Shown piece by piece: positions 1 through 30,223 of a stretch of DNA of 32,000 nt. A program made the position numbers and the translations under genes. This DNA comes from Candidatus Saccharimonadota bacterium (GTDB lineage Bacteria > Patescibacteriota > Patescibacteriia > 2-12-FULL-60-25): the NCBI GenBank assembly GCA_016699205.1, contig CP064964.1, positions 690,001-722,000 on the forward strand, in the 5' to 3' direction. Each line of letters starts with the position of its first letter. Within the stretch, counting starts at the first letter, position 1. Under the pieces are notes generated by a model, which was not told where the DNA came from, searched no databases, and saw only the letters and a list, made by a program, of their open reading frames with translations.

Positions 1-3000
1 GGCAAGCAGATCGCCGTACATAATGGGATTACAGCCATTTATGACGGTGAACTTATTACCTCGTCTCAGCTTGTCTATAATATTTCTGACCCGGTGGTTC
101 CGGTAAATATTGCAAATATTCTTGCTGCAAATGATGTAGGAGATCTTGTATTTAAAAATGATTACCTTTACCAGGTTGGCGCAACGATTAACGTGTACGA
201 CATATCAAGTCCATCAAGTCTTGAGCTCGTTGCGACATCTACTGGTAATGCGCCTTATGCCGCTTTTCTCTCAGGTGGTTATCTCTATGTTACTCGAGAT
301 GCGAGATTGGCTATTTATGATATTTCTGATGCTACGCGTCTAACTGAACTAGGGACCGCGCAGCTCCCGTGTACTCTTTGTCTTGTTGGCAGCAACCAGA
401 CGAATGGCTTGTATGTGAAAGAGCGCTATGCATACATGACGGATATTGGAACCGATAATTTTTATATTATCGATGTAAGTGATCCGTATTCACCGACGCA
501 TACTTCCTATATTTCGGGTTTTAGTAATCCTCAAGGTGTCGTTGCAGAAGGGAACTATGCTTATATGGTTGAAAGCGGCTCCAATGAACTTACTATCATT
601 AACATCGCCTCTTCAACGGAGCCTTTTGTTGCTCGTTCCGTGCCATCGAGTCAGTCTGCACCTACTGAGGTCGCACTTTCAGGCAACTATCTCTATGTCG
701 GAGGCTCGACAGGAGTAGCGGTTTTTGATGTTTCAAGCTCCACTAATCCATTCTTAGTGACAACGCTTGCATCGGGTAGTGTTCAAGATATGCAGGTTGA
801 GGGCAATCAGTTACATGTTGGTACAGCAAGCGCCTATTTCATCTATGAGATGCCAAGTATTACTGCCCCCGCCATGCTCGTCGGTTCCGTCCAGGCAGGC
901 ACAGGTTTGATTGAAAATGACTTCACGATCGGCAATCAGCTGTATGTCGGTGGAGGCATTCATGCCGGAGGCAGCATCATGGCACGCGGTTCCATCAGTG
1001 CCTCTGATATCGATGTTTCCGGATTTGGTTCCGCAACAGCCGTACGTACCGTCCGTGTTGCCAGCCAATCAGTATATGCCGCCGGCGACTATGTCTATAC
1101 GACGAATGATGCGAGTACGCGCGTCCATCAGATTTCTATTGCCAACCCAGAGTTCGCAACCAATACGGCGGCTGGCGTGCTTTCCTCTGCAAGCGGACGC
1201 GACTTGTTTGTGGCTGGCGGCTATCTCTATGTCGCTCAAGGCACCAACGGCCTTGCGATCTTCAGTACGGAGAATGCTACCGGCGTTCTCAGACAGATCA
1301 GTACAACCACCGGTCTTGGAACGGCTCATGAGGTATTTGTCTCCGGCCGCTATGCATATATTGCTGCGCTTGGTACGGGTGTGGAAGTGGTTGATGTCGG
1401 CAATCCGTATACTCCTGTCCTGAAGGAGACCTTTGATGGCAGCGGTACGAATTCCTCCCAAGGCGTTTATCTCCAGGACCGCTATCTCTATGTCGGTGAT
1501 GGTGCTGACGGTTTGCGTATTCTTGATGCCTCGGATCCGGTCGATCTCCGCCAGATCGGTATTCTTAATACGGCCGGTTCTGCAGAAAAGGTGTTCGTGT
1601 CAGAAGGCATCGCTTATGTCACGGATGATACCAACGGTCTTGTGATCGTCGATGTCTCCAACCCGGCAAGCCCTCGACTGCTCTCAACGGTTCCCCCGAT
1701 TTCTAGTGGAAATATTTCCAATGTCACGAAAGCAGGTGACTATCTGTATGTGACATCGGATACGGGTTTGGGCAGCGTTGATAACTTCCGTGTCTTTGAT
1801 GTTTCGAGTTCCACGCGTCCGGTTCTTGTGTGGGGCTTCAATGGTCCGGGGTCTCCGGCTGGGGTGGATGTGAAGGGACGCTATGCGTATGTCGGTGATG
1901 GCGAGCTCTTGCATGTGATCCGTTTACCGGGTGTTGACGCTCCTTCTGCGAATATCGGCTCTTTGTTTACGGGTCAATTGAATGTGGCCGAAGGTGCTGA
2001 TATCGGCAGCTATCTCAATGTGAAGACGGGGCTCAGTGTCGGCAATGGCGGTATTCAGGTTCAGGGTCCTTCCACGATCACTGGTTCTTCCACGGATGCT
2101 ATCCTCCGCGTTCGCAATGCCTACAACTCAAGTACCACGCCATATACGGCATGGGGTATCTTGGTTGATTCGATTGCTGTTTCACCTTCTTTCAACGTTC
2201 CTCCAGCTAACCGTGATTCTTGGTCGATGTATATCGATTATTCTTCTTCATCCAACCGTGGCGGTCTCTGTGTTGATGATGCAATCACTGGCGGCGGTTG
2301 TCCGATTTCCAACATTGGCGGCCGCTCGATCATGACGGATGCAGGTATCACGGCGAATGCCTTTGACTTGGCTGAGCGTTACTCGGTATCTGGTACGGCT
2401 GAAGGCGGAGATCTCCTTGTTCTTGAAACATCGACATCTACGATGGTTACGAAGCATTCGGGCACGATGTATGATCCGAAACTCATCGGTATCGTCTCCT
2501 TGAATCCTGGATTTGAACTCGGCTGGTTCAATCCTTCCAGTACCGATGTCGCTGTTGCCCTTACGGGCCGCGTTCCGACCAAGATCTCGATGAACAATGG
2601 TCCGGTTCAGATTGGCGATCCTCTTACGTCTTCCGATGTCCCTGGCTATGCCATGAAGGCGACGAAGCCGGGTATGATTATTGGTCACGCGCTTCAGAGC
2701 GTGTCTGCTACGGGTACGGCTGAAGTATTTGTTGCTGTCGGGTATTGGGCGGGATCTATTTTAGCAACGGATGGCACAATTACCACGATTCATGACGATC
2801 TCACGATCACCGCTTCCGTATCTGCTACTGATTTAAACCCGACTTCCGATTCATGGGGCCTTACTTTCCGTGGTGAGGCTTGGGATGCATCTTCAACATC
2901 GGTTGTAGCCTCATCTTTTACGCTGTTGACGGATATTCTTTCTGCAACAACTTCGCGCTTTAGTATTCGGTCAACATCAGGAACGGATTTGCTTTCGATC

Positions 3001-4065
3001 GACCAGGTAGGAAATGCCTCTGTTGCAGGTAGTTTGTCAGTTGCAGGTAAGTTTTATCCTTCCTCTAAAGGCGGGGGGCTACAAGATGATTGGTATGTAT
3101 TTGTCGATGATACATCATCGACGGCTGCATATATTTCAACCAATGCAGAAGGTTGGCAGAGTATGGATACGTATGATTTTGCGGAGCGCTATTACTCACC
3201 GGATTCACTTGAGCCGGGTGATGTGGTCATCGTTTCCGATTCAGGACGCATGCATGTACAGCGCTCAATGAACGATAAGGCTATGGTATTGGGTATCGTA
3301 TCGACTCGTCCTGCGTTTATTGCGGGACGTCCGGCAACATCGACATATCCAATCGCGCTTTCTGGCCGTGTACCGACCAAGGTTTCTGGTATGAACGGTG
3401 CTGTTAAGGCAGGTGATCCGTTGGCTCCGACATCGATTCCTGGAGTTGTTGCTAAGGCAATTCATACAGGACCGATCGTTGGTTTGGCCTTGGAAGATTA
3501 CGATCAGACGAATGTCGGTAGTATTGAGGTGTTTGTGAATCCGGGTTGGTGGACCAATCAAGCCGAGACAAATCAGGAAACGATTATCAATAATACGGTT
3601 ATTAATAACGTTACTTCAGGTGTGACGCGTCGCGGTGTCGGTATGATCGTTGCTGGCTCAAAGCGCGTACATATCAGCTTTGACTCGATCGGCGCCTATC
3701 CGTTTGTACAGGTCACACCGCGTGGCTTGATTCAGGGTAATTGGGGTACGGATGGATATAGCGATACGGGTTTCGATATCTTGATGTCAGCTGAACAGAC
3801 ATTCGATGCTTACTTCTCATGGCAGGTGGAGCCGTTACAGGGAAGTGATCGATTGAATTTATCGGACGGCACATCTGCAGACATTGATCCTGTGACGGGT
3901 TTACCTTTTGGTTTTACGACACCAACAACGACGGAATCGATTATTGAGGAGTCTCCGATGACGACTTCGACTGAAGCTTTGTCGGGAAGCGAATCGACCT
4001 CCACTGATTCTGTTACTGGGTCAACAGATTCAGAGGCATCCGCAACATCAAGTGAAGCGATCTAG
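1..4065 (+). CDS. Giant surface/secreted repeat protein, 5'-truncated by the window edge. It has at least 12 LVIVD-type beta-propeller repeats, the conserved C-terminal cassette and a Ser/Thr/Glu-rich tail.
   Basis: The ORF track gives 94..4065, but frame 1 is open from nt 1 (GKQIAVHNGITAIYDGEL...), so the gene enters from upstream. It has recurrent G-x-YAYV...GL-x-I/V-x-DVS-x-P-x-x-P units, e.g. GLVIVDVSNPASPRL at 1636-1680. The last ~600 aa (from ~2260) are paralogous to 10151-11745. Confidence 0.85.
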   Translation, partial: GKQIAVHNGITAIYDGELITSSQLVYNISDPVVPVNIANILAANDVGDLVFKNDYLYQVGATINVYDISSPSSLELVATSTGNAPYAAFLSGGYLYVTRDARLAIYDISDATRLTELGTAQLPCTLCLVGSNQTNGLYVKERYAYMTDIGTDNFYIIDVSDPYSPTHTSYISGFSNPQGVVAEGNYAYMVESGSNELTIINIASSTEPFVARSVPSSQSAPTEVALSGNYLYVGGSTGVAVFDVSSSTNPFLVTTLASGSVQDMQVEGNQLHVGTASAYFIYEMPSITAPAMLVGSVQAGTGLIENDFTIGNQLYVGGGIHAGGSIMARGSISASDIDVSGFGSATAVRTVRVASQSVYAAGDYVYTTNDASTRVHQISIANPEFATNTAAGVLSSASGRDLFVAGGYLYVAQGTNGLAIFSTENATGVLRQISTTTGLGTAHEVFVSGRYAYIAALGTGVEVVDVGNPYTPVLKETFDGSGTNSSQGVYLQDRYLYVGDGADGLRILDASDPVDLRQIGILNTAGSAEKVFVSEGIAYVTDDTNGLVIVDVSNPASPRLLSTVPPISSGNISNVTKAGDYLYVTSDTGLGSVDNFRVFDVSSSTRPVLVWGFNGPGSPAGVDVKGRYAYVGDGELLHVIRLPGVDAPSANIGSLFTGQLNVAEGADIGSYLNVKTGLSVGNGGIQVQGPSTITGSSTDAILRVRNAYNSSTTPYTAWGILVDSIAVSPSFNVPPANRDSWSMYIDYSSSSNRGGLCVDDAITGGGCPISNIGGRSIMTDAGITANAFDLAERYSVSGTAEGGDLLVLETSTSTMVTKHSGTMYDPKLIGIVSLNPGFELGWFNPSSTDVAVALTGRVPTKISMNNGPVQIGDPLTSSDVPGYAMKATKPGMIIGHALQSVSATGTAEVFVAVGYWAGSILATDGTITTIHDDLTITASVSATDLNPTSDSWGLTFRGEAWDASSTSVVASSFTLLTDILSATTSRFSIRSTSGTDLLSIDQVGNASVAGSLSVAGKFYPSSKGGGLQDDWYVFVDDTSSTAAYISTNAEGWQSMDTYDFAERYYSPDSLEPGDVVIVSDSGRMHVQRSMNDKAMVLGIVSTRPAFIAGRPATSTYPIALSGRVPTKVSGMNGAVKAGDPLAPTSIPGVVAKAIHTGPIVGLALEDYDQTNVGSIEVFVNPGWWTNQAETNQETIINNTVINNVTSGVTRRGVGMIVAGSKRVHISFDSIGAYPFVQVTPRGLIQGNWGTDGYSDTGFDILMSAEQTFDAYFSWQVEPLQGSDRLNLSDGTSADIDPVTGLPFGFTTPTTTESIIEESPMTTSTEALSGSESTSTDSVTGSTDSEASATSSEAI

Positions 4066-4241
4066 TCTGGGTAGTTTGAAATTGCGTGTACACAGTTGGA
4101 CACAGGTTATCCACATAGTGAAGATAATATAGGTAACGTAGAAAATTATCGTTTACCTTTTGTTTTAGCTAACTTTCGTCTCATTGATTAATTAATCATA
4201 CAATTGAAGTAGGCTAAGAGTTCACACTTTTGGTCATCGAC

Positions 4242-7200
4242 ATGCCCCGTTCCCTTCGTCCTTTTTTGATCGCTCTCACCCTCCTTCTCGGTGGGTTGTT
4301 TCTGTCTTCCTCGGCTGTCTTGGCTGCTCCTCAAATCAACAATCAGATCAACTATCAAGCTCGCCTCATGGATAGCTCGGGCTTCCCAGTGGCTGATGGA
4401 AACTACTCCGTCTATCTTTCGTTATACGACGCATCGACAGCAGGTACTCGTCTTTGGACAGCGACCGGTACCTTGGCGACTCCAACGCCGCTCACCGTGA
4501 ATGTCCAGAATGGTCTCTTCACCGTTCTTCTTGGCGATACGTCTGCTGCAGGGGGAAGTCAGAACACGCTCGATACCGTGAACTGGAACTCCGACCAGCT
4601 CTACCTTGGCGTCACTATCAACGCTGATGCTGAAATGAGCCCTCGAAAGCGCTTTGCTTCTGCTCCTCAGGCTTTCAATGCCAGACAATTGCAGGGGATG
4701 TATGCCTCGAGTACGGCATCGGGGGGGCAAACACTCTTCACCCTCAATCAAACCCAGAACGATGCCGCTACGGGAACCCGTTCCACTCTCGATGTTCGAT
4801 CCAATGGAACCTCTAACTCCAATGACTTCTTGATTCGAGGCATCAATGATGCAAACGCGGTCGTCTTTTCCATCAATCGCCAAGGATCAGTCACGTCTAC
4901 CAATGTTTTTGTCAGTGGCCTGACAAGTTCCACCAACCTGAACGCCAACATCGCTTCCTTTGCGACCGCAACCGTTGCCGGACAGGGGATTTGTCTCTCC
5001 AATGGACTGTTCTGTTCCACGGGATCAGTCGCTGAAGCCGATACGCTTCAGACCGTATCCAATCGCGGAAGCTTTACCACCACCACCCTTACCTTGTTTG
5101 GCGGGCTTACAGCTTCCAACATCACAGCGACGGGTACTCTTAACGTGACGGGAGTCTCTACTCTTGCTGGAGTTACGTTTACGAATGCGACGGCGACAAG
5201 CGTTACAAGTACCAATGTGTTTGGTGTAAATGGTGCCTTTACAAATCTGACAGTGGATAGTCTGGGTGTCGTTGGCATCACATGGACGAACGCGACAGGT
5301 ACGAACACCACTTCAACAAATCTTTTTGCTTCGAATCTTTTGTTTTCGAATGCCGCTGGTGGAACACTGCTTGCGACGACGGTTTCTACAACCAACCTTA
5401 CTGTTACCGGTCAGCTCGTCTGTTTGGCTGATGGAACGAATTGTCCGTCAGGAACCTCGCCGAATCTCCAGACGGTGACGAATGCCGGCAATACGACCAC
5501 CAACGCGATCCAGTTTGCTGGAGGCACCTCGACGGGAAGCTTTGTTTTTAATGCGACCGCGACCGTCAGCGGAACGCTTGTCTCATTGTCGGTTACTACA
5601 ACTGATCTTTTCGCGAATAACGCTTTTTTTGCAACAGCAACCGTTTCCGGTCAGGCCGTTTGTCTTGCAAATGGTGTTGGTTGTCCAATCGGTACCGTGC
5701 TTAACGATACGCTTCAATCTGTCACGGCTCGCGGTTCCTTTACGACCACCACCGCCCAGTTCTTTGGCGGGTTTGTGGCTGCAAGCTCGAGTGTGACGGG
5801 GACGTTGAATGTTGCGGGAAGCGCTAACCTGCTTCAGAACGCCTATGTTGGTACTTCTACATATTCTGGAGGTCTAAACTCGCTGTTTGCTGCAGACGGC
5901 AATGATTTATTTGTTGCAGGAAGCATTGGTTCGGTTTCATCGATCTATACGAATGGGTCGTTTGTCGCCGGTAGCTCGTCAACTATCTATGCCGATGGTT
6001 CAATTACAAAGACAAACGGAATACTTGAAATTCAAGCTTTTAGCTCGCTTACAGGAGATTATGGTGATCTAGGTTTGCGAGCTGGCGATGGGATCGTTGG
6101 TTTAGAGGATGGTGGCGCTGCATTTATGACGGCTGGCGACGGCGCTTCTGGTGGTGATGGTGGTTGGGCGCAGGTTTTTGCTGGAAATAGCGGTACATCG
6201 AGCGGTGATCTCGCGGGAACGGCCGCCTTGGTAGGTGGCAGCGGTGTTGGTCTTGGTGATGGCGGAGATGTGTTGCTTCAATCTGGCGGTGCAAATAATG
6301 GTGTTGCAGGGGACATTCAGCTTAATGCTGGAAGTGATAGTACTGGCTTTGATCAATCAGGGTCTATCTATCTTCGCCCGGGCATTTCTTCTGCTGCCAG
6401 TTCCTTGAATGATGCTGCTACGTTTGTGATGATTCAAGATGCAAATAATACAGACATCACGGCACAGTTGCGTTTTGGTGAGCTTGCAGGTTCTAACGAT
6501 GATTTTGTTGGTTTTAGAGCTGCAAATACTCTTGCATCAAGTACGATTTGGATTCTGCCGCAGTTTACCGGTGCATCCGGTACTGTGATTGCGACGGATG
6601 GAAATAATCAACTCTATTTCTCAAGCGTCTGTCTCACGGATGGCACCAATTGTCCGGCTTCTTCTGGCCTCGACACCCTCCAATCGGTCACGGCTCGCGG
6701 CAGCTTCACGACCACTACGGCCCAGTTCTTTGGTGGATTCGTCGCAGCTTCATCCTCGGTCACAGGTACCTTTGTCGTCGTCGGTTCTACCTCGCTCCGC
6801 AATGTCGACTTCACAACGGCTACCGGTACTTCGGTCACCACGACTAACCTCTTTGCGACATTGGGTGGCTTTACGACCGCTACGGCAACCAATGCGAATA
6901 TCAACATTCTCTCTGCGGCAACCGGTACGGTTTCTAACCTCAACTTCCGCAATGCGACTGGTACGTTCCTGTTTGCCTCAACAGGTACGTTCGCAACAGT
7001 CACTTCATCGTTCTTGTATGCCAATACGGCTAACTTTGCCACAGCTACCGTTTCCGGTGTCGGTATCTGTTTGAGCAATGGCGTTGGCTGTCCGGCAAGC
7101 GGTTCCTCTAATGACACCCTCCAGTCGGTCACCGCACGCGGCAGCTTCACGACTACCACGGCCCAGTTCTTTGGCGGCTTTGTGGCAGCTTCCTCTTCTG

Positions 7201-10200
7201 TCACAGGAACCTTTGCTGTTGCCGGAACAAGCACCCTTTTGCGCGATGTCTATGTCGGTACCTCTACCTACGATGTTTTCCTGAACTCCGACTTTGTCCT
7301 CGATGGCAATGATCTGTTTGCCGCCGACAATATTGGTTCGGTTTCCTCGATCTTCTCCAATGGCATGCTTGTTACCGGAGAAACCGGTCCTACCTTGTTT
7401 GGAGACGGATTCATCAATCAGACCGATGGCGCGCTCGTTATTTCGGCTGACAGCGCATTCCTGACCCAGCCTTCCATCAGCATTATCGCCGGTGATGTTA
7501 CTTCTGGTCTTGCCGGTGACGTGAATATCCTGGCTGGCAACGGTCTTGGCGGAAACCCAGCTGGAAATATCTATCTCACGCCTGGTGACTCCCTTGGACA
7601 GCCGGGACATCTCTATCTCAATGCTGCAGGCACTTCCAATCAACCGCAATTCCGCTTTGAATCCATCGGTGGAGGCATGGTGAGCTTAGAGGCTCCGAAT
7701 ACCGCTAACACCGAGAACTTTGTCCTTCCATTTGCGGATGGCGCTTCTTCTACCGTCATTGGTACCAATGGCTTCGGAGGTCTCACCTTTGTCTCTGTTT
7801 GTTTGACGGATGGCACCAACTGTCCGGCTTCTTCTGGTGTAGCTGACCTTAACTGGACCTTCAACCTCGCTGGAGATTTTGCGCGAAACGCGACTGCAAC
7901 GACCGATATCGCTATCGGCTCTTCTACCCTAGGCAATGCTCCGTTTGTTTTCCTTAACAATACAACCACTTCACGCTTCCTGATCGGTCAGAACTCCTCG
8001 ACCGGAGCCGGAGCTGATCTCGTGATTGGGGCCACGACGGCTAGCGGCATGAACACCGCCTTCCAGCTCACGGGCGATGATCTCTTTGTGGCTGGCAATA
8101 TCGGGTCTGCTTCCAGCGTGTATACCAATGGCGCTTTTATTGCTGGACCTGGATCGACCCATTACGGCAATGGTTATATCAACAAGAATGATGGATCGCT
8201 GACGCTCTCAGCAAGCCTTGGTATTGTTGCTTCAAGTCGCCTTGATGCTCGCTATCTAAATCGCTGGTTTCTTTCGCCGCTCTTGAAGACGGCTGTGAAT
8301 GGCGGCAAGAGTGTTCGTGTTCCTGTCGGTAACTCTCCTACAAACGCTGCTTTTGATGGCAGCCATATGTGGGTTGTGAATGCTGCTTCTAACAACGTTT
8401 CCAAGATTGATATTACGACCAATACCGTTGTTGCGACGACGACGGTTGGAACAAATCCTGTTGATATTGCTTTTGACGGTACGTACATGTGGGTGGTCAA
8501 CCAATCTTTTGGCAACGTTTCCAAGATTGATATTACGACCAATACCGTTGTTGCGACGACGACGGTAGGAGCAGGTCCTAATGCTGTTGCCTTTGATGGA
8601 ACACACATGTGGGTAGCTAACACAGGCTCTAACAACGTTTCCAAGATTGATATTACGACCAATACCGTTGTTGCGACGACGACGGTTGGAACAGGTCCTA
8701 GCGGCATTGCGTTTGATGGCACCCATATGTGGGTTGCTAATACTACTTCCGCTAATGCTAACAAGATTGAGATCGTAAGTAATACCGTTGTTGCGACGAC
8801 GACGGTAGGAACTGGTGCTTTAGGTATCGCGTTTGATGGCAGCCATATGTGGGTTGCGAATCAAACACAAGATACCATCTCTAAAATTGATATCACGGCT
8901 AATACCGTTGTTGCGACGATGACTGGAACGTCTCCTAATAGTCTCGCGTTTGATGGCACCCATATGTGGGTGACGAAGGGTATCGCAGCTGATGTTATAA
9001 AGATTGATGTTAATACCAACGCTGCTGTTGTCGTTACATCAACAAATGGAGTAGCTGCAAACGGCATTGCGTTTGATGGCACCCATATGTGGGTGACGAA
9101 CGGTGGTAACAATAATGTCATCAAGCTTCCTGTTGGTGGTGGGAATGGAGCAGATATGAACTTTGGCGTGAACCTCGTTCCTACGTCAAATGACACTTTC
9201 GATCTTGGTACGTCTGCGCTTGAATTTAGAAATGGTTTCTTTAGCGGAACCGTCTCTACGACCAATGTTACCGTCGGAGGATTCAATGTTTGTCTCTCTA
9301 ACGGTACGAATTGTCCAGCTTCAGGTACAGAGACGCTGCTTACGGTGTCGAATCGAGGCGCATTAGCGACAAGTACTCTTACGCTCTTTGGCGGGTTTGT
9401 AGCCGCAAGCTCAAGCGTAACCGGGACGTTGAGTGTGGGAGGGGCGCTCAATGTGACAGGAACCGTGAATATCTTGTTACCATCGACTTCAACGCCATTT
9501 TATATTGACGCTCCTGCTCCAACCGATTTTGAACTGTCACAGTTATTGTCGATTTCTACGACGGGATCGGAAGGATTTTTAATCGGTAATTTCAATCTCT
9601 TTGGTTCGGTTAATGCTACGCTGTTAAATTTTACGAAAGATTTGAATGATCCGGTCAATGCTGCCGGTTCGAGAATCTCCTATTATAACGAGTTCAATCA
9701 GATGTCTTTTGGAGTGAATGCCTCTGGTTCAAACGCAACGGTCTTAGAGTTAACTGATAATGATGCCATGTTAAACGGCTTCGGAGCGGAAGCAGCCATG
9801 ACGATCCGTAAATATACGGATACAAGAACGTCCTCGATGATTCATTTGTGGAACTTGGGTTCAAATTCCGGAGAAGTCACGGTTAATGTTGGTTCTAGTG
9901 ATCCAAATGATGTCGTGAATGCACAAATTGGAAGTATTTATTTCCGTCAAAACAGTACCGCTTCCGGCACGCAGGCTTATCTCAATAAGGGGTCGGCGAC
10001 AAGTTGGTATGGCATCGCAACATTAGACATGCTTCCTTCGTCATCGACATTCTCACAAACGCGGACATTCCTCGCGAACCGCACCACGAGCACCCTTGCT
10101 GAACCAAGTAATTTTACGATGACGATCGGTTACTCTTCTGCCACGACTTTTGGAGGTTTGTGTATCGATGATACGTTTAGCGGTACAGGCTGTCCTACGA

Positions 10201-10889
10201 CAAATATTAATGGGGCTTCGATTATGGCGGACGGACCCATCTTGGCAAATGCGTTTGATATTGCTGAATTTTATTCCGTTACAGGTACGGCTGATGCGGG
10301 GGACGTGCTTGTTCTTGATGCATCAAGCACAGCTACTGTTAAGCAGAGCGGCGGTGTTGCCTATGATTCCAAGGTCATCGGTGTTGTCTCTACCGCTCCG
10401 GGATTTGTTCTAGGCTGGTCTGGTGGAACGCGCGTTGCCCTTGCTGGTCGAGTGCCAGTAAAAGTTTCGATGAACAATGGACCGATTCAAGTTGGGGACG
10501 CATTGGTTTCATCGGATGTTCCTGGATATGCCATGAAGGCCACGCGGCCAGGAATGGTGCTTGGCTATGCGCTGGAAAGCGCGTCTGCGACCGGAACGGC
10601 TGAGTTGTTTGTTAATGTAGGTTATTGGGCTGGCATGGCTCTTGCGTCAGATGGATCGATACAGGTTGATGATAGCGGTAATGTATCTGTGATGAATGAT
10701 CTTCATGTTGGAGGAAGATTGTTTCCGAGTTTGCGAGGAGGGGGAATACAAAATCAGTGGTATTTGTTTGTGAATGCCGATGATCCTACCTCGACTTATA
10801 TTTCCACAAATGCCGATGGTTTCCAGAGCATGGATACCTATGACTTTGCCGAACGTTATTATTCACCGGATGAGCTTGGAACCAGGTGA
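4242..10889 (+). CDS. Giant secreted fibre/propeller protein, main part. It is interrupted by a 1-nt frameshift at ~10872 and continues in 10873..11745.
   Basis: ATG at 4242 (the ORF track starts at an upstream TTG, 4230). Signal peptide MPRSLRPFLIALTLLLGGLFLSSSAVLA/AP. T/S/N/G-rich segments are punctuated 7 times by C-L-x-x-G-x-x-C-P. Seven 40-aa blades (consensus core FDG[ST][HY]MWV, flanked by N-V-S-K-I-D-I-T-T-N-T-V-V-A in the central blades) lie at 8310-9140. The C-terminal cassette homologous to 2260-4065 starts at ~10151. Confidence 0.85.
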   Translation: MPRSLRPFLIALTLLLGGLFLSSSAVLAAPQINNQINYQARLMDSSGFPVADGNYSVYLSLYDASTAGTRLWTATGTLATPTPLTVNVQNGLFTVLLGDTSAAGGSQNTLDTVNWNSDQLYLGVTINADAEMSPRKRFASAPQAFNARQLQGMYASSTASGGQTLFTLNQTQNDAATGTRSTLDVRSNGTSNSNDFLIRGINDANAVVFSINRQGSVTSTNVFVSGLTSSTNLNANIASFATATVAGQGICLSNGLFCSTGSVAEADTLQTVSNRGSFTTTTLTLFGGLTASNITATGTLNVTGVSTLAGVTFTNATATSVTSTNVFGVNGAFTNLTVDSLGVVGITWTNATGTNTTSTNLFASNLLFSNAAGGTLLATTVSTTNLTVTGQLVCLADGTNCPSGTSPNLQTVTNAGNTTTNAIQFAGGTSTGSFVFNATATVSGTLVSLSVTTTDLFANNAFFATATVSGQAVCLANGVGCPIGTVLNDTLQSVTARGSFTTTTAQFFGGFVAASSSVTGTLNVAGSANLLQNAYVGTSTYSGGLNSLFAADGNDLFVAGSIGSVSSIYTNGSFVAGSSSTIYADGSITKTNGILEIQAFSSLTGDYGDLGLRAGDGIVGLEDGGAAFMTAGDGASGGDGGWAQVFAGNSGTSSGDLAGTAALVGGSGVGLGDGGDVLLQSGGANNGVAGDIQLNAGSDSTGFDQSGSIYLRPGISSAASSLNDAATFVMIQDANNTDITAQLRFGELAGSNDDFVGFRAANTLASSTIWILPQFTGASGTVIATDGNNQLYFSSVCLTDGTNCPASSGLDTLQSVTARGSFTTTTAQFFGGFVAASSSVTGTFVVVGSTSLRNVDFTTATGTSVTTTNLFATLGGFTTATATNANINILSAATGTVSNLNFRNATGTFLFASTGTFATVTSSFLYANTANFATATVSGVGICLSNGVGCPASGSSNDTLQSVTARGSFTTTTAQFFGGFVAASSSVTGTFAVAGTSTLLRDVYVGTSTYDVFLNSDFVLDGNDLFAADNIGSVSSIFSNGMLVTGETGPTLFGDGFINQTDGALVISADSAFLTQPSISIIAGDVTSGLAGDVNILAGNGLGGNPAGNIYLTPGDSLGQPGHLYLNAAGTSNQPQFRFESIGGGMVSLEAPNTANTENFVLPFADGASSTVIGTNGFGGLTFVSVCLTDGTNCPASSGVADLNWTFNLAGDFARNATATTDIAIGSSTLGNAPFVFLNNTTTSRFLIGQNSSTGAGADLVIGATTASGMNTAFQLTGDDLFVAGNIGSASSVYTNGAFIAGPGSTHYGNGYINKNDGSLTLSASLGIVASSRLDARYLNRWFLSPLLKTAVNGGKSVRVPVGNSPTNAAFDGSHMWVVNAASNNVSKIDITTNTVVATTTVGTNPVDIAFDGTYMWVVNQSFGNVSKIDITTNTVVATTTVGAGPNAVAFDGTHMWVANTGSNNVSKIDITTNTVVATTTVGTGPSGIAFDGTHMWVANTTSANANKIEIVSNTVVATTTVGTGALGIAFDGSHMWVANQTQDTISKIDITANTVVATMTGTSPNSLAFDGTHMWVTKGIAADVIKIDVNTNAAVVVTSTNGVAANGIAFDGTHMWVTNGGNNNVIKLPVGGGNGADMNFGVNLVPTSNDTFDLGTSALEFRNGFFSGTVSTTNVTVGGFNVCLSNGTNCPASGTETLLTVSNRGALATSTLTLFGGFVAASSSVTGTLSVGGALNVTGTVNILLPSTSTPFYIDAPAPTDFELSQLLSISTTGSEGFLIGNFNLFGSVNATLLNFTKDLNDPVNAAGSRISYYNEFNQMSFGVNASGSNATVLELTDNDAMLNGFGAEAAMTIRKYTDTRTSSMIHLWNLGSNSGEVTVNVGSSDPNDVVNAQIGSIYFRQNSTASGTQAYLNKGSATSWYGIATLDMLPSSSTFSQTRTFLANRTTSTLAEPSNFTMTIGYSSATTFGGLCIDDTFSGTGCPTTNINGASIMADGPILANAFDIAEFYSVTGTADAGDVLVLDASSTATVKQSGGVAYDSKVIGVVSTAPGFVLGWSGGTRVALAGRVPVKVSMNNGPIQVGDALVSSDVPGYAMKATRPGMVLGYALESASATGTAELFVNVGYWAGMALASDGSIQVDDSGNVSVMNDLHVGGRLFPSLRGGGIQNQWYLFVNADDPTSTYISTNADGFQSMDTYDFAERYYSPDELGTR
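8394..8806 (+). repeat. In-frame 120-bp-period tandem repeat (propeller blades) with a perfectly identical 53-bp core
   Basis: aacgtttccaagattgatattacgaccaataccgttgttgcgacgacgacggt occurs identically at 8394-8446, 8514-8566 and 8634-8686. A 26-bp sub-core (aataccgttgttgcgacgacgacggt) recurs at 8781-8806, with a degenerate copy at ~8901. Confidence 0.95.
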
Positions 10890-26400: not shown

Positions 26401-26429
26401 AGGCTAGCAAACGAAGTAAAAAAAGTCAA
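26401..26429 (-). promoter_or_regulatory. Candidate rpsO promoter (TTGACT-N17-TAGCCT) giving a ~110-nt structured leader
   Basis: The - strand reads TTGACTTTTTTTACTTCGTTTGCTAGCCT. The leader 26286-26394 contains several hairpins (e.g. CCGTT..AACGG, GGCCC..GGGCC). S15 genes are commonly autoregulated through leader structures. Confidence 0.4.
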
Positions 26430-26445
26430 TAAAACGGCTCTTCTA

Positions 26446-26474
26446 TTGACAAAATGTCATTTTTTAGGTATATT
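26446..26474 (+). promoter_or_regulatory. Near-consensus sigma70 promoter (TTGACA-N17-TATATT) overlapped by the palindrome TGACAAAATGTCA
   Basis: TTGACA at 26446-26451, a 17-nt spacer, and TATATT at 26469-26474. The inverted repeat TGACA-AAA-TGTCA spans 26447-26459. It is divergent from the rpsO promoter. Confidence 0.65.
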
Positions 26475-26625
26475 TCTTCGTTAGTTGTTCCTTATAACTT
26501 GGCCTTAATTTGTTGGAAGTGGTCCTAGGTAGCTGGTTGATGAGCGCGGATGGTCCGCGAGCGCAACGAGTATTTCTGACGGAACACGGTTCACGGCGCC
26601 AATGCTGTGACGGGAGGGTGTCACT

Positions 26626-27174
26626 ATGGCACAGAAGAAGTTGGCGAGTCGCTCCGTGCGTAAGGAGGTGTCTGCAAAGGTGGAGGAGCCGAAAATTGTC
26701 GGCACGACCTTCACGGTCTTGGTTACTTACGCCAAGCTCCCCGGGATCGAAGCGCTGCACGAGAAGTTCCCGGGCAGGGAGGTCCCGCTCCTCTACGACG
26801 GTCGCACGTGGACCCGTCACGCGTCCTGCGCCACGATCGATGAAACCCCTGGCGAGCGCGAGTTCATCGTAGCGGATATCCCCGCTGAGTTCCGCAAGCA
26901 GCGGGTCTGCTCGATCGAGAATACGCTTGCCGAGTACTTGGATCGCCTCGGCTACCGGTACGCGATCGAGACGGAAGCCGTCGAGTTCGCCGACGCTCAG
27001 TCCGACGTCCTGCGCGAGAATTGGATCTTCGCTCTTGGCTCGTCGGCGTCCTATCGCGTCGACCGGCAGGTGGCTGAGCTGGACGCGCTTCCTGGCGGCA
27101 GCGTTCTGGGGGGCTATTATGTCGTCAACTTTGTGTACAGCGCTCGCTTGCTCCTCGTCCGCAAGTCCGCCTAA
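26626..27174 (+). CDS. Orphan hypothetical protein (182 aa) in a compositionally atypical GC-rich segment
   Basis: ATG is preceded by GGGAGGG, about 8 nt upstream. A hand count gives 64 G+C in 26701-26800 versus 50 in 27301-27400. Third codon positions are GC-rich. No recognised domain. Confidence 0.6.
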   Translation: MAQKKLASRSVRKEVSAKVEEPKIVGTTFTVLVTYAKLPGIEALHEKFPGREVPLLYDGRTWTRHASCATIDETPGEREFIVADIPAEFRKQRVCSIENTLAEYLDRLGYRYAIETEAVEFADAQSDVLRENWIFALGSSASYRVDRQVAELDALPGGSVLGGYYVVNFVYSARLLLVRKSA

Positions 27175-27203
27175 GGCTCACAGGTAAGATTTAACTCTCA
27201 TTC

Positions 27204-27240
27204 GGCCCCTGATGTTACTGTCAGGGGTCGTTTGAATTTA
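27204..27240 (+). terminator. Hairpin terminator after the GC-rich orphan gene
   Basis: GGCCCCTGA-TGTTACTG-TCAGGGGTC is followed by GTTTGAATTTATT. Confidence 0.55.
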
Positions 27241-27274
27241 TTGAGAGAAAACAGTAAGGTTTAGTCCTATATAT

Positions 27275-30223
27275 ATGTCTAAACGTCCCGTTCACGAGAT
27301 TGAAAAGAAATGGCAGGAGCGCTGGGAACAAGACGGCGTTTATCGAGCTGATGATACGGGTAAGGCCGAGAAGTTTTACGGGCTTATCGAGTTTCCGTAC
27401 CCGTCCGGTGAGGGATTGCATGTAGGTCATCCGCGCTCCTATACGGCTATTGATGCAGTAACCAGAAAACAGCGAATGTTGGGCAAAAATGTTCTTTATC
27501 CGATTGGTTGGGATGCTTTTGGATTACCGACGGAAAATTTTGCCATCAAGAACAAGATCAAGCCGCAGGAGGCGACCAAGAAGAATATCGGTAACTTTAC
27601 TCGCCAGCTGAAGTCGATTGGTTTTGGATTTGATTGGTCTCGCGAGGTCGATACAACGGATCCGAAATACTACAAATGGACACAGTGGCAGTTTTTGAAG
27701 TTTTTCAATTCTTTTTACGATGAGGTTGAGCAGCGTGCGCGTCCTATCGAGGAATTGCCGCCGCATTTGAATAAGGACGAACATCGCATGGCTTTCAAGA
27801 TGGCATCGACTATCAACTGGTGCCCGCGCTGCAAGATCGGCTTGGCCAATGAAGAGGCCCAAGGGGGAGTTTGCGAGCGTTGCGGGAATCCGGTCGAGAA
27901 ACGCGAGAAGGCGCAGTGGATGATTCGCATTACAAAATATGCGGAACGTCTCTTGAAAGATTTGGATACGGTCGACTACTTGGAGAAAATTAAAGCGCAG
28001 CAGATTAATTGGATTGGGAAGAGTGAAGGAGCGTATGTAGATTTTAATATTTCTGGCTCCAAAAATCCATTCGATAAGGTTACGGTGTTCACGACGCGCC
28101 CCGATACATTGTTTGGTGCGACGTATTTGGTGATGGCACCGGAGCATCCACTGGTTGCGACGTGGTTGAAGGAGGGGGATATAAAGAATCAAGATGAGGT
28201 TCAGGCATATCAATCAACAACGGCAGGCAAAAGCGAGATGGAGCGTACAGCAGAGGGCAAGGAAAAAACTGGATGTGTACTCAAGGGAATCGAGGCGGTG
28301 AACCCGGCAAATGGGGAGAAAATTTCCATTTGGATTTCCGATTATGTGTTGGCCGGATATGGAACCGGAGCGATCATGGCCGTGCCGGCGCATGATGAAC
28401 GTGATCATGAGTTCGCTAAAAAGTTTGGATTGCCGATCAAGTATGTCGTAGCGCCTATCGTGGTTGATAAGGAAAATGCGCATCGTGAAGGAAAGAAGAC
28501 TGTGACACGACCGACCGTTCACGCGGTTATTCGAAATCCAAGAACCGGTGAAATTCTTTGCATGCGCTGGAAGCATCGTCCGGTAACAACATTTGTGATT
28601 GGCGGAATGGAAGCGGGTGAGGATTTAATCGAGGCGGCAAAACGAGAAGTGAAAGAAGAGACCGGTTATACGGATTTGAAATTCGTCGGCGTTCTTGGCG
28701 GACCAATGCGTGCCGATTATTTTGCTGGGCACAAAGATGAAAATCGTATCGCTTATGTCACGGCTGTGATGTTTGACTTGGTAAGCGATGACAAGGGGGT
28801 TGTGCCATCGTCGGAAACAGATACGCATGAGCCGGTTTGGATCCCGCTCGACAAGATCTCAGCTGAGCCTTTGCCGCCATTGGAACGCGACTATCTCTTG
28901 CCGCGCATCAAGGATGAAAATGCTTCACTTTTTTCTGGTGAGGGAGAGGCGATCAACTCCGGTTTCCTCGATGGATTACCGACATGGAAGGCAAAAGATG
29001 ACATGACTTCTTGGCTTAATGAACAGAAGAAAGGCCAGAAAGCGATAACCTACAAATTGCGTGATTGGGTGTTTTCTCGCCAGCGTTATTGGGGTGAGCC
29101 GATTCCGATCGTGATCTGTAAAAAGTGCGGCTATGTTCCGGTTCCAGAAAAAGAGCTGCCGTTGATGCTGCCGGATGTCGAGGCATATGAGCCGTCTGAT
29201 TCTGGCGAGTCACCGCTTGCGGCTATTCGTGATTGGGTTGAGGTTGATTGTCCATCGTGCGGAGAAAAGGCTGAACGTGAAACCGATACGATGCCTAACT
29301 GGGCTGGTTCCAGTTGGTACTTTTTGCGCTATTGCGATCCGCATAATGATACGGAGTTCGCATCGGCAGAGAAGTTGAAATATTGGATGCCGGTGAATTT
29401 GTACAACGGCGGCATGGAGCATACGACGCTTCACCTGTTGTATTCCCGATTCTGGTACAAGTTTTTGTGGGATTTGAGAGTTATTCCGGAAGAGTGTGGA
29501 AGCGAGCCGTATGCCAAGCGTCGATCGCATGGACTGATTCTTGCGCAAGGCGGGGAGAAGATGTCCAAGTCCAAAGGGAATGTGGTGAATCCGGATGATG
29601 TTGTCGGTGAATACGGCGCCGATGTGTTCCGTGTGTACGAAATGTTCATGGGGCCTTTTGATCAGCCGGTACCTTGGGATACGAATGGTATTGAAGGCGT
29701 ACGTAAATTCCTCGAGAAAGTCTGGGGTTTATTGGTTGAGGGTAAATCTATCGAGGCGAGTGATGAGCTAGAAACGATTTATCATCAGAGTGTAAAGAAA
29801 GTCACCGATGGAATCGATCAATTGCATTTCAACACCTGTGTTTCGCAGATGATGATTTTGACGAATGCTTTTGCGGATGCGGGCGGTGTACCGGTATCGA
29901 TGAAGCATGGCTATCTGCAGATCCTCGCTCCGTTTGCGCCGCATATGACGGAGGAGCTTTGGTCGATTATGGGGGAGAAGGGATCGATTCATCGATCTGG
30001 TTGGCCGGCTTATGATTCTTCCAAATTAACGGCTGCTACTTTTGAACTTGTTGTTCAAGTGAATGGTAAGGTGCGCGGTAAGATCATCGTTGATTCATCT
30101 ATTGATGAAGCTGGAGCCAAGGCTGCGGCATTATCGGATGAGAATGTGAAGAAGTATTTGGAAGGTAAAGAACCTAAGCAGGTGAGATATATTGCCGGTA
30201 AATTGTTAAGTATTGTTGTATGA
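27275..30223 (+). CDS. leuS: Leucyl-tRNA synthetase carrying an inserted Nudix hydrolase domain (982 aa)
   Basis: HIGH motif (GLHVGHPRSY), KMSKS (GEKMSKSKGN), CP1 editing-domain end AVPAHDERDHEFAKKFGLPI, and YKLRDWVFSRQRYWGEPIPIV. About 160 extra residues lie between LPIKYVV and GEAINSGFLDGL. They include a perfect Nudix box, GGMEAGEDLIEAAKREVKEETGY (28601-28669). Confidence 0.93.
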   Translation: MSKRPVHEIEKKWQERWEQDGVYRADDTGKAEKFYGLIEFPYPSGEGLHVGHPRSYTAIDAVTRKQRMLGKNVLYPIGWDAFGLPTENFAIKNKIKPQEATKKNIGNFTRQLKSIGFGFDWSREVDTTDPKYYKWTQWQFLKFFNSFYDEVEQRARPIEELPPHLNKDEHRMAFKMASTINWCPRCKIGLANEEAQGGVCERCGNPVEKREKAQWMIRITKYAERLLKDLDTVDYLEKIKAQQINWIGKSEGAYVDFNISGSKNPFDKVTVFTTRPDTLFGATYLVMAPEHPLVATWLKEGDIKNQDEVQAYQSTTAGKSEMERTAEGKEKTGCVLKGIEAVNPANGEKISIWISDYVLAGYGTGAIMAVPAHDERDHEFAKKFGLPIKYVVAPIVVDKENAHREGKKTVTRPTVHAVIRNPRTGEILCMRWKHRPVTTFVIGGMEAGEDLIEAAKREVKEETGYTDLKFVGVLGGPMRADYFAGHKDENRIAYVTAVMFDLVSDDKGVVPSSETDTHEPVWIPLDKISAEPLPPLERDYLLPRIKDENASLFSGEGEAINSGFLDGLPTWKAKDDMTSWLNEQKKGQKAITYKLRDWVFSRQRYWGEPIPIVICKKCGYVPVPEKELPLMLPDVEAYEPSDSGESPLAAIRDWVEVDCPSCGEKAERETDTMPNWAGSSWYFLRYCDPHNDTEFASAEKLKYWMPVNLYNGGMEHTTLHLLYSRFWYKFLWDLRVIPEECGSEPYAKRRSHGLILAQGGEKMSKSKGNVVNPDDVVGEYGADVFRVYEMFMGPFDQPVPWDTNGIEGVRKFLEKVWGLLVEGKSIEASDELETIYHQSVKKVTDGIDQLHFNTCVSQMMILTNAFADAGGVPVSMKHGYLQILAPFAPHMTEELWSIMGEKGSIHRSGWPAYDSSKLTAATFELVVQVNGKVRGKIIVDSSIDEAGAKAAALSDENVKKYLEGKEPKQVRYIAGKLLSIVV

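Follow-up and report, generated by a model that had tools for sequence, protein, structure and literature searches.

The window analysed here is a 32,000-nucleotide stretch of contig CP064964.1 (assembly GCA_016699205.1, positions 690,001 to 722,000), and the gene in question is leuS, an open reading frame (ORF) at 27275..30223 on the + strand predicted to encode a bacterial-type leucyl-tRNA synthetase (LeuRS) of 982 residues with a Nudix module nested in its editing domain, CP1. The protein (hereafter the query, its residues being numbered with a Q where other proteins are compared with it) is identical to NCBI QQR60448.1, which is named 'class I tRNA ligase family protein [Candidatus Uhrbacteria bacterium]' and has the lineage Patescibacteria / Parcubacteria group. 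The ORF scored 910.6 bits against the TIGR00396 leuS_bact equivalog (cutoff 548.4), and the Pfam domains found in it are the class I catalytic domain, the PF13603 editing domain (residues 245-400), the anticodon-binding domain and PF00293 NUDIX (residues 411-537). In a 58-sequence family alignment, on which invariance of the LeuRS motifs was scored, the synthetic site retains the HIGH motif, here HVGH (27419..27430, residues 49-52, with H49, G51 and H52 invariant), and the KMSKS motif (29558..29572, residues 762-766, with K762, M763, K765 and S766 invariant), while the editing site retains both the Thr-rich motif TTRPDT (28091..28108, residues 273-278, with T273, T274, R275, P276 and T278 invariant) and the motif AHDERD (28388..28405, residues 372-377, with H373, D374, R376 and D377 invariant); these and all features of the protein given below lie on the + strand. 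An AlphaFold2 (AF2) model of the full-length protein had a pLDDT of 85.2 overall and of about 90-95 over the Nudix module and, when superposed on crystallised LeuRS, reached TMt values as high as 0.81-0.82, with the LeuRS scaffold intact.

The insert was delimited by comparison with LeuRS in which it is missing. Against the Thermus LeuRS (1h3n), residues 393-553 of the query stand in place of about 15 residues (363-377), and against the closest insert-free orthologue, the syntenic P0016, residues 393-552 replace a nine-residue loop, TGDASESTA, preceded by ...LPI(K/V)xVV and followed by F(S/V)GEG.AINS.... The part of CP1 N-terminal of the insert (28007..28450, residues 245-392) matches PF13603 with 191.5 bits over profile positions 2-148 of 185. 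Removing the insert did not extend this match over the junction, the match still stopping at profile position 146. The crystallised stand-alone CP1 constructs 4k47, 3pz5, 7n11, 3o0a and 8poq, when aligned to the query with the insert deleted, do run over the junction and on for a further 35 residues or so, to about residue 589, and in the relative P0144 profile positions 124-185 of PF13603 pick up again after the Nudix domain. The part of CP1 C-terminal of the insert is placed on the same evidence at 28931..29041 (residues 553-589; FSGEGEAINSGFLDGL...). Since the constructs span the junction and PF13603 resumes in P0144, the Nudix module is nested inside CP1, about 35 residues before its end.

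An alignment with LeuRS orthologues, proposed in the earlier note on this DNA as a way to define the insert and its distribution, confines the insert to residues 393-552 and finds one of at least 140 residues at the same site in 71 of 121 aligned sequences (the query and its 120 best LeuRS relatives; the 71 are referred to below as carriers). One of the carriers, P0063 (1020 residues), has an insert at the Q392 site with no recognisable Nudix box (RRLLTVKPTEY instead of REVKEETGY) and no PF00293 call, and this insert is either a decayed Nudix domain or some other domain.

The Nudix module itself occupies 28451..28930 (residues 393-552) and comprises a whole small Nudix protein, including an N-terminal extension, PIVVDKENAHREGKK, and C-terminal helices, set in a surface loop of CP1. 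PF00293 matches residues 411-537 with 56.3 bits (E 4e-15, cutoff 21.1), rising to 60 bits for the excised insert alone. The Nudix box, GX5EX7REUXEEXGU, reads GGMEAGEDLIEAAKREVKEETGY (28601..28669, residues 443-465), its last position being Tyr instead of I/L/V, and its residues are kept almost throughout the carriers, with G443 in 71, E449 in 69, R457 in 71, E458, E461 and E462 in 70 each and G464 in 68. Three residues outside the box mark the module further. Tyr482 (28718..28720) lies 17 residues past the box at the specificity-loop (X-loop) position that correlates with hydrolases of diadenosine polyphosphates (ApnA), while Lys487 (28733..28735) and Trp522 (28838..28840) are subfamily-specific and found in 67/71 and 68/71 carriers, respectively. 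In an insert alignment spanning all cassette types (A2; see below) the invariant positions were exactly the box residues, K487 and W522. An AF2 model of the excised insert showed the Nudix beta/alpha/beta topology at a pLDDT of 94.3 and a pTM of 0.88, and Foldseek with this model gave 548 PDB matches at E ≤ 0.001, of which the 50 best listed are all Nudix enzymes with TMt up to 0.77.

Much of what the earlier note claimed from the sequence has therefore stood up. It had proposed a complete Nudix domain within a LeuRS of 982 residues, which otherwise looks functional here, and the Pfam score, the confident AF2 fold and the Foldseek matches on the one hand and the TIGR00396 score and intact HIGH, KMSKS and editing motifs on the other agree with this; the Nudix box was found at precisely the coordinates it gave, and the catalytic glutamates are properly aligned. 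It had placed the insert at 28451-28936 (residues 393-554), between the editing domain and the catalytic core. The start is retained, the end of the module proper moves back to 28930, and the position has had to be revised to one inside CP1. That the protein is a complete bacterial-type LeuRS, with synthetic and editing sites intact and a whole small Nudix protein nested in a CP1 loop, is close to certain, and the module is very probably catalytically active as a Nudix hydrolase. By its architecture, as read from the sequence, LeuRS-Nudix is a bifunctional enzyme.

Several contigs that carry the identical protein come from NCBI, JGI, ENA and Logan, the longest of them measuring 1.08-1.11 Mb, and the 90% cluster of QQR60448.1 likewise includes JGI, ENA and Logan members. 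The gene order PNPase-NYN-S15-leuS-NTP_transferase is common to three independent assemblies, L001, L083 and L084, and the leuS of the query occupies the same syntenic slot as insert-free orthologues and orthologues with other cassettes. In L084 the leuS in this slot is without the insert, so that presence or absence of the Nudix module is a polymorphism of an orthologous gene and not a difference between paralogues. The leuS stop codon and the start codon of the NTP_transferase (GalU-like) gene that follows share 4 nt (30220-30223), which suggests translational coupling, and the two genes stay together in L001, L083 and L084.

A scan of species-representative genomes made with a single insert sequence found LeuRS-Nudix in Patescibacteria, in Clostridia, Bacilli and Tenericutes metagenome-assembled genomes (MAGs) and in MAGs labelled as archaeal, the taxonomy being that of the record labels. 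A word-indexed search with the insert alone returned one fragment only, and the relatives described here came from whole-protein and exhaustive HMMER searches. The earlier note knew of no description of the architecture, and in the literature searched none was found; rare it is not, being common in Patescibacteria and present in some Bacillota and archaeon-labelled MAGs. Nor is it the product of a chimeric assembly, a possibility the same note had raised, given the continuous frame, the recurrence of the architecture in many assemblies of independent origin and the presence of the exact protein in four sequence collections. Several MAGs with close LeuRS-Nudix relatives carry the labels 'Gammaproteobacteria', 'Methanosarcinales' or 'archaeon' (L003 (CAYZVS010000017.1), L041 and L056; L015, L019, L021 and L027). 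The insert of L003 is 77% identical to that of the query, which makes it likely that some such labels are binning or taxonomy errors. In L010 (an Absconditabacterales MAG) and L025 (UBA5124) the LeuRS-Nudix frames are broken by in-frame stops under translation table 11, one of those in L010 lying inside the Nudix domain (...VFDLV*DERV...), and homology continues past the stops; they are consistent with a reading of UGA as a sense codon in these lineages.

Exhaustive HMMER searching with the insert identified 376 representative clusters at E ≤ 1e-3, 149 of them at E ≤ 1e-10. The best 150 clusters comprised 101 with LeuRS flanks, one ProRS (prolyl-tRNA synthetase) and 33 apparently free-standing proteins (≤ 210 residues), the rest being CP1+Nudix mini-proteins, tandem Nudix proteins, one HGTP_anticodon+Nudix fragment and other fragments. 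No non-synthetase host of the subfamily was seen among these best 150 of the 376 clusters, and the only multi-domain hosts found are, by their domain content, aminoacyl-tRNA synthetases or CP1-derived proteins. On sequence grounds the module is a distinct, uncharacterised Nudix subfamily, recognisable by its Nudix box together with the Tyr of the X-loop, a Lys that does not vary within K-[DN]-x-N and a likewise invariant Trp. The N-terminal extension of the query type, PxVDxxNPPRxGKK, was also found at other LeuRS sites and in a free protein of 163 residues (P0135), from which it follows that the inserted unit is a whole small Nudix protein.

The module has been inserted at no fewer than five sites in LeuRS, near Q233-237 (single or tandem), near Q259-268, at Q392 (single or tandem), near Q613-618 and near Q659. 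Two LeuRS (P0122 and P0124) have three Nudix copies, and others (P0125, P0129, P0130, P0201, P0230 and L026) have two, either in different loops or in tandem. Identity is 32-42% between the copies of a single protein and 54-67% where the same slot is compared from protein to protein, which rules out recent intragenic duplication as the origin of the multi-copy LeuRS and points to slot-specific lineages. The module has also reached ProRS, in five independent clusters (P0206 and P0272-P0275, 641-674 residues) of DPANN-type ProRS that have relatives of about 485 residues without Nudix; here, with P0214 listed alongside, it lies between the anticodon-binding and C-terminal domains, and the relatives are labelled Nano-/Woesearchaeota. 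In sister LeuRS, with or without Nudix, other enzymes are nested, namely a Ham1/ITPase-like module near Q257-264 and a Ser-hydrolase / alpha-beta-hydrolase module of about 196 residues after Q618 (after Q573 in P0046). LeuRS with one or other of these include P0093, P0102, P0109, P0115 and P0117 (about 1360 residues), P0054-P0074 (about 1150 residues), P0091 and P0046. To judge by these domain assignments, LeuRS in sister lineages is a carrier for several small hydrolases.

A further form of the module was found in MAGs of gut Clostridia, as proteins of about 290 residues (275-310) that are homologous only to Q336-~580 and consist of the C-terminal part of CP1, the Nudix domain and the LeuRS-type C-flank (L023, L024, L028-L030, L033, L034 and L040; P0001, P0205, P0235, P0243 and P0270). 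These mini-CP1+Nudix proteins retain an intact Nudix box, have a degenerate editing motif (AHIQEH) and lack the Thr-rich region. That they are pieces of a split LeuRS was ruled out, there being no other LeuRS fragments within 4 kb on either side, and it follows that the Nudix domain can work without an adjacent synthetic site. The gene lies in a conserved order of an unknown 339-residue protein, CYTH, mini-CP1-Nudix and cytidylate kinase; UDG and a second Nudix gene are found nearby, and one MAG has two copies of mini-CP1-Nudix. The retained piece of CP1 may be a structural or ligand-binding partner of the Nudix domain.

The history of the insert differs from that of the protein around it. Mean identity to the query over the 71 carriers was 41% for the insert and 72% for the core, and across 68 carriers core and insert distances were uncorrelated (Spearman -0.009). 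Within one core clade (≥ 73% identity) six insert types as well as insert-free forms were found, and P0003, with a core 94% identical to that of the query, has an insert only 18% identical which is still a Nudix domain with an intact box. Compared as DNA, leuS and the adjoining genes of the window match the syntenic L001 at about 88% identity outside a cassette-replacement tract at about 28450..28950, in which alone identity falls to 27-57%; dN between the two was 0.036 for the core (dS 0.78) and 0.98 for the insert. Where the cassette type is the same, divergence of the insert roughly tracks that of the core, as in P0058 (core 64%, insert 57%), and against P0002 the insert gave pN 0.15, pS 0.73 and omega about 0.06 (0.062) with a core omega of 0.054, ratios that are approximate since dS is saturated in this comparison. 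By these ratios the insert is under purifying selection. The comparisons indicate that leuS alleles acquire and lose the Nudix module and swap it among themselves as a cassette, and it can be inferred that several old cassette types have been moved among these alleles by recombination via the conserved flanks.

The reading favoured for the module is that of a functional hydrolase carried on the synthetase itself, whose substrates would most likely be adenylylated dinucleoside polyphosphates (diadenosine tetraphosphate (Ap4A), diadenosine triphosphate (Ap3A), Ap4N and similar nucleoside-diphosphate-X by-products). Such by-products would arise on the synthetase when aminoacyl-AMP reacts with ATP or another nucleoside triphosphate, and the module would cleave them asymmetrically, giving AMP and ATP from Ap4A. 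An X-loop Tyr about 17 residues past the Nudix box (the marker of Dunn 1999) correlates with diadenosine polyphosphate activity (PMC5389931), and Tyr was found at +17 (aligned column) in 51/71 carriers and within +14 to +20 in 65/68. The Pro of ADP-ribose-type enzymes at +14 to +17 was found in 0/68 carriers, and there is no SQPWPFPQS-like NADH motif in the module sequence. Most of the Ap4A in cells comes from synthetases, and its cleavage by Nudix enzymes is asymmetric (PMC10148737). Weaker hints in the same direction are that the best family matches, low as they score, are RppH-type and that the Foldseek neighbours include Ap4A-bound RppH, Mycobacterium smegmatis MutT1 and, with the highest TMt, the Aquifex Ap4A hydrolase. 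Clearance of Ap4A or leucyl-adenylate-derived products on the enzyme had been suggested in the earlier note, and it gains indirect support from the X-loop Tyr, the occurrence of the subfamily in ProRS and the synthetase-only hosts. Taking together the X-loop Tyr, this match of source and chemistry and the restriction of the module to two unrelated synthetases, class I LeuRS and class II ProRS, hydrolysis of ApnA-type by-products coupled to the synthetase is the best single hypothesis, and one to be held tentatively. Since so many loops can house a working module, the benefit would probably lie in stoichiometric co-expression and nearness to the source enzyme, with no fixed channel between the active sites; the many insertion sites argue against a geometry-specific 'on-enzyme channel'. 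A tethered hydrolase of this kind would suit cells with minimal genomes and little regulation.

A number of observations weigh against this reading. The X-loop Tyr is a correlate and no proof of an ApnA substrate, and the insertion sites show no sensitivity to geometry. No curated functional model was reached, with RppH, NudE and similar models giving 17-31 bits against cutoffs of 95-259; for RppH the module of the query scored 17-21 bits and free-standing homologues up to 31 (cutoffs 116-259). The best match by phmmer in the PDB was to an uncharacterised protein at a marginal E of 4e-4. The Foldseek neighbours include the MutT-type 2azw, Mycobacterium smegmatis MutT1, RppH (one entry with Ap4A bound), NudC and ADPRase, and while the highest TMt of 0.77 is that of the Aquifex Ap4A hydrolase 3i7u, MutT-type, NudC and ADPRase entries score similarly, such that the fold matches are generic over MutT, RppH, NudC and ADPRase. 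LeuRS is not known to rank with the strongest producers of Ap4A, and a preference for it as host over LysRS or PheRS would call for an explanation. The module must also be dispensable, given close orthologues without it. The Ham1 (an ITPase-type house-cleaning enzyme) and Ser-hydrolase modules of related LeuRS fit a general 'hydrolase carrier' at least equally well, and the mini-CP1+Nudix proteins have no synthetic site nearby and are encoded beside CYTH and cytidylate kinase genes.

Several of these points would be accommodated were the module a passenger concerned with nucleotide-pool sanitation, that is, a MutT-like or nucleoside triphosphate pyrophosphatase enzyme held in a permissive loop of a constitutive, essential protein with no mechanistic link to leucylation. 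This is possible, if on the unlikely side. In sister LeuRS other loops house Ham1, a member of the ITP/XTP pyrophosphatase family, and a Ser-hydrolase, MutT-type enzymes (2azw and M. smegmatis MutT1) are among the top Foldseek matches, the mini-CP1+Nudix gene is flanked by CYTH and cytidylate kinase and has UDG and a further Nudix gene in its vicinity, and insertion geometry is not conserved. The hosts are moreover reduced-genome lineages, in which fusion would, with the same degree of doubt, give small hydrolases their expression and make their loss hard. Set against this, the query did not match the TIGR00586 MutT model at E ≤ 0.01, the Clostridial mini-CP1+Nudix reaching 31.8 bits (cutoff 97.9), and the X-loop Tyr is a correlate of ApnA-type enzymes. 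Hitch-hiking would also leave unexplained why, over bacteria and archaea and with repeated independent insertions, the hosts identified are only synthetases and CP1 derivatives. A broader proposal, rather unlikely in the form stated, is that of a dedicated small-Nudix family that serves as an exchangeable plug-in for the synthetases of ultra-small symbionts (five or more loops of LeuRS, ProRS of DPANN-type archaea and the CP1-derived mini-proteins). It would form a layer not recognised so far, destroying dinucleoside polyphosphates (alarmones) or aberrant adenylates on the synthetase, with several ancient cassette types circulated by recombination as in conflict or immunity systems.

An enzyme acting on RNA 5' ends, in which an RppH-like module removes 5'-pyrophosphate or Np4A/NAD-type caps from RNAs, perhaps tRNA precursors or transcripts, recruited by the tRNA-binding LeuRS body, is improbable. 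The best NCBIfam matches of the module and its free-standing homologues, weak as they are, were to RppH-type models, the foremost fold matches include structures of E. coli RppH, and part of CP1 is kept in the mini-CP1+Nudix proteins. CP1 binds the acceptor end of tRNA, which counts on the same side. The RppH scores nevertheless lie far under the cutoffs of those models, neither the Asp motif of the editing site nor the Thr-rich region survives in the mini-CP1 proteins, and in ProRS the module adjoins the anticodon-binding domain in another geometry; RNA binding by the module would have to be presumed.

The cassette exchange could itself be taken as the sign of a selfish or conflict-driven element, which persists by mobility and recombination or shields the synthetase from nucleotide-type toxins or signals, with the diversity of types reflecting an arms race. 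The uncorrelated divergence of core and insert, the six cassette types and insert-free forms in one core clade, the sharp recombination tract between syntenic genomes, the multiple sites with tandem and up to triple copies and the variable presence at one orthologous locus all speak for it. The hallmarks of such elements were looked for and not found. There is no Hint/intein Pfam match and no homing-endonuclease domain in the ORF, the junction residues of an intein are missing (the insert begins with Ala393 and ends ...NASL, followed by Phe553), and there is no convincing target-site duplication or terminal (inverted) repeat around the insert, a weak 11/14 direct repeat flanking it (28427-28440 and 28943-28956) being no better than chance repeats in the region. 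The GC content of the insert is not anomalous (0.498, compared with 0.483 for the gene), and a search for phage homologues of the module found none. The strong purifying selection on catalytic residues and the slow evolution of the insert within a cassette type, about that of the core, also count against a selfish cassette, which is accordingly given a small probability.

That the Nudix fold has been kept as a non-catalytic appendage, whether structural, ligand-sensing or in contact with tRNA, is very unlikely. Nudix-fold proteins without enzymatic activity do exist (PMC5389931) and a few members, such as P0063, have degenerate boxes, but R457, E458, E461 and E462 are kept in 70-71 of the 71 carriers and over all cassette types while their surroundings vary. 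An artefact of assembly or annotation, by chimeric contig or fused gene call, is an a priori possibility in metagenome assemblies and can be dismissed almost entirely here, with a continuous frame, the identical protein on contigs from four sources, 70 further homologues with an insert at the same site and synteny in three independent assemblies. This leaves the tethered hydrolysis of ApnA-type by-products as the hypothesis to which, with due caution, most weight is attached.

Elsewhere in the window, a segment of about 840 bp (26420-27270) between rpsO (S15) and leuS is not present in the syntenic L001. It contains an ORF at 26626-27174 (+) encoding 182 residues, with a GC content of 62% (leuS 48%) and no Pfam match, and L084 has in the same slot a different ORF of 211 residues that is 27.6% identical to it (E 0.075); the space between rpsO and leuS is probably a variable, horizontally acquired gene slot. 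Two long ORFs, one at 94-4065 (+) encoding 1323 residues with LVIVD repeats and a beta-propeller and one at 4230-10889 (+) encoding 2219 residues with a YNCE-like beta-propeller, are probably giant surface proteins such as occur in Patescibacteria.

Searches of the literature for LeuRS or other aminoacyl-tRNA synthetases with Nudix, the candidate phyla radiation (CPR) and Patescibacteria found no publication describing the fusion, and the large review of the Nudix clan by Srouji et al. never mentions tRNA synthetases (PMC5389931). Nesting in CP1, the multi-site and multi-copy pattern, cassette exchange and the spread to ProRS and mini-CP1 proteins were likewise not found described. The architecture is already deposited in public databases with precomputed Pfam domains and under generic names only. 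At NCBI the insert-free relatives are named 'leucine--tRNA ligase' and the query only 'class I tRNA ligase family protein', the nested domain apparently defeating the naming rule; such generic naming could make LeuRS look absent when metabolism is reconstructed automatically and may distort inferences on completeness and metabolism in Patescibacteria.

Debate continues over both the role of Ap4A (alarmone or damage metabolite) and its control, for which a synthetase-Nudix fusion that occurs in nature offers a ready test case, and if the module does cleave ApnA, evolution would have repeatedly coupled production and destruction in one polypeptide. In terms of protein evolution, an essential enzyme has taken up a second, complete enzyme at various loops, as many as three times in one protein and alongside Ham1 and Ser-hydrolase modules, and the shuffling of ancient cassette types among near-identical genes is an unusual evolutionary pattern. 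CP1 is the target of benzoxaborole antibiotics, and a large domain within it bears on the design of inhibitors and on the movement of tRNA between the two sites.

Compared with known systems, the host is a bacterial-type LeuRS. The enzymes of Thermus thermophilus (1h3n/2bte) and E. coli (4aq7) are homologous to it over the full length, with HIGH, KMSKS and the CP1 Thr-rich and Asp motifs alike and TMt of 0.75-0.82; the query differs in that the 160-residue Nudix module takes the place of a CP1 surface loop of 9-15 residues, and the leucine-specific segment of Thermus (residues 584-636) is missing from the query. The module shares its fold, canonical box and size of about 130-160 residues with RppH/NudH, 3i7u, 2azw and M. 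smegmatis MutT1, and its X-loop Tyr is a marker of the ApnA-hydrolase type, but unlike these small single-domain Nudix enzymes it falls short of the cutoffs of all curated families, has its own K487, W522 and PxVDxxNPPRxGKK extension and is mostly nested in synthetases.

An extra catalytic domain on a synthetase-type enzyme has precedents in NadM-Nudix and in IleRS with a GNAT domain. In NadM-Nudix (nicotinamide mononucleotide (NMN) adenylyltransferase / ADP-ribose pyrophosphatase), to which there is a weak NF003790 match, a nucleotidyl-transferring enzyme of the HIGH superfamily is likewise joined to a Nudix domain of related chemistry. The fusion there is end-to-end, with an NMN adenylyltransferase as partner and an ADP-ribose-type Nudix, whereas the module of the query is nested and the Pro marker is missing. 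IleRS-GNAT (NCBIfam NF040702) is a precedent for a second enzymatic activity on a class I synthetase, and AlaX, ProX and YbaK are precedents for editing-domain paralogues as separate proteins, with which the mini-CP1+Nudix proteins can be compared. In contrast to both, the addition here is a pyrophosphohydrolase that is nested in CP1, differs from protein to protein in its site and number of copies and is swapped as a cassette, and the mini-CP1 proteins have lost the editing motifs and kept the Nudix domain. A parallel in proposed logic is the axis of LysRS, Ap4A and NUDT2, ApaH or YqeK, in which a synthetase makes Ap4A and a dedicated hydrolase removes it (PMC10148737); there the hydrolase is a separate protein, whereas in LeuRS-Nudix the synthetase and its predicted hydrolase activity would be combined in one polypeptide.

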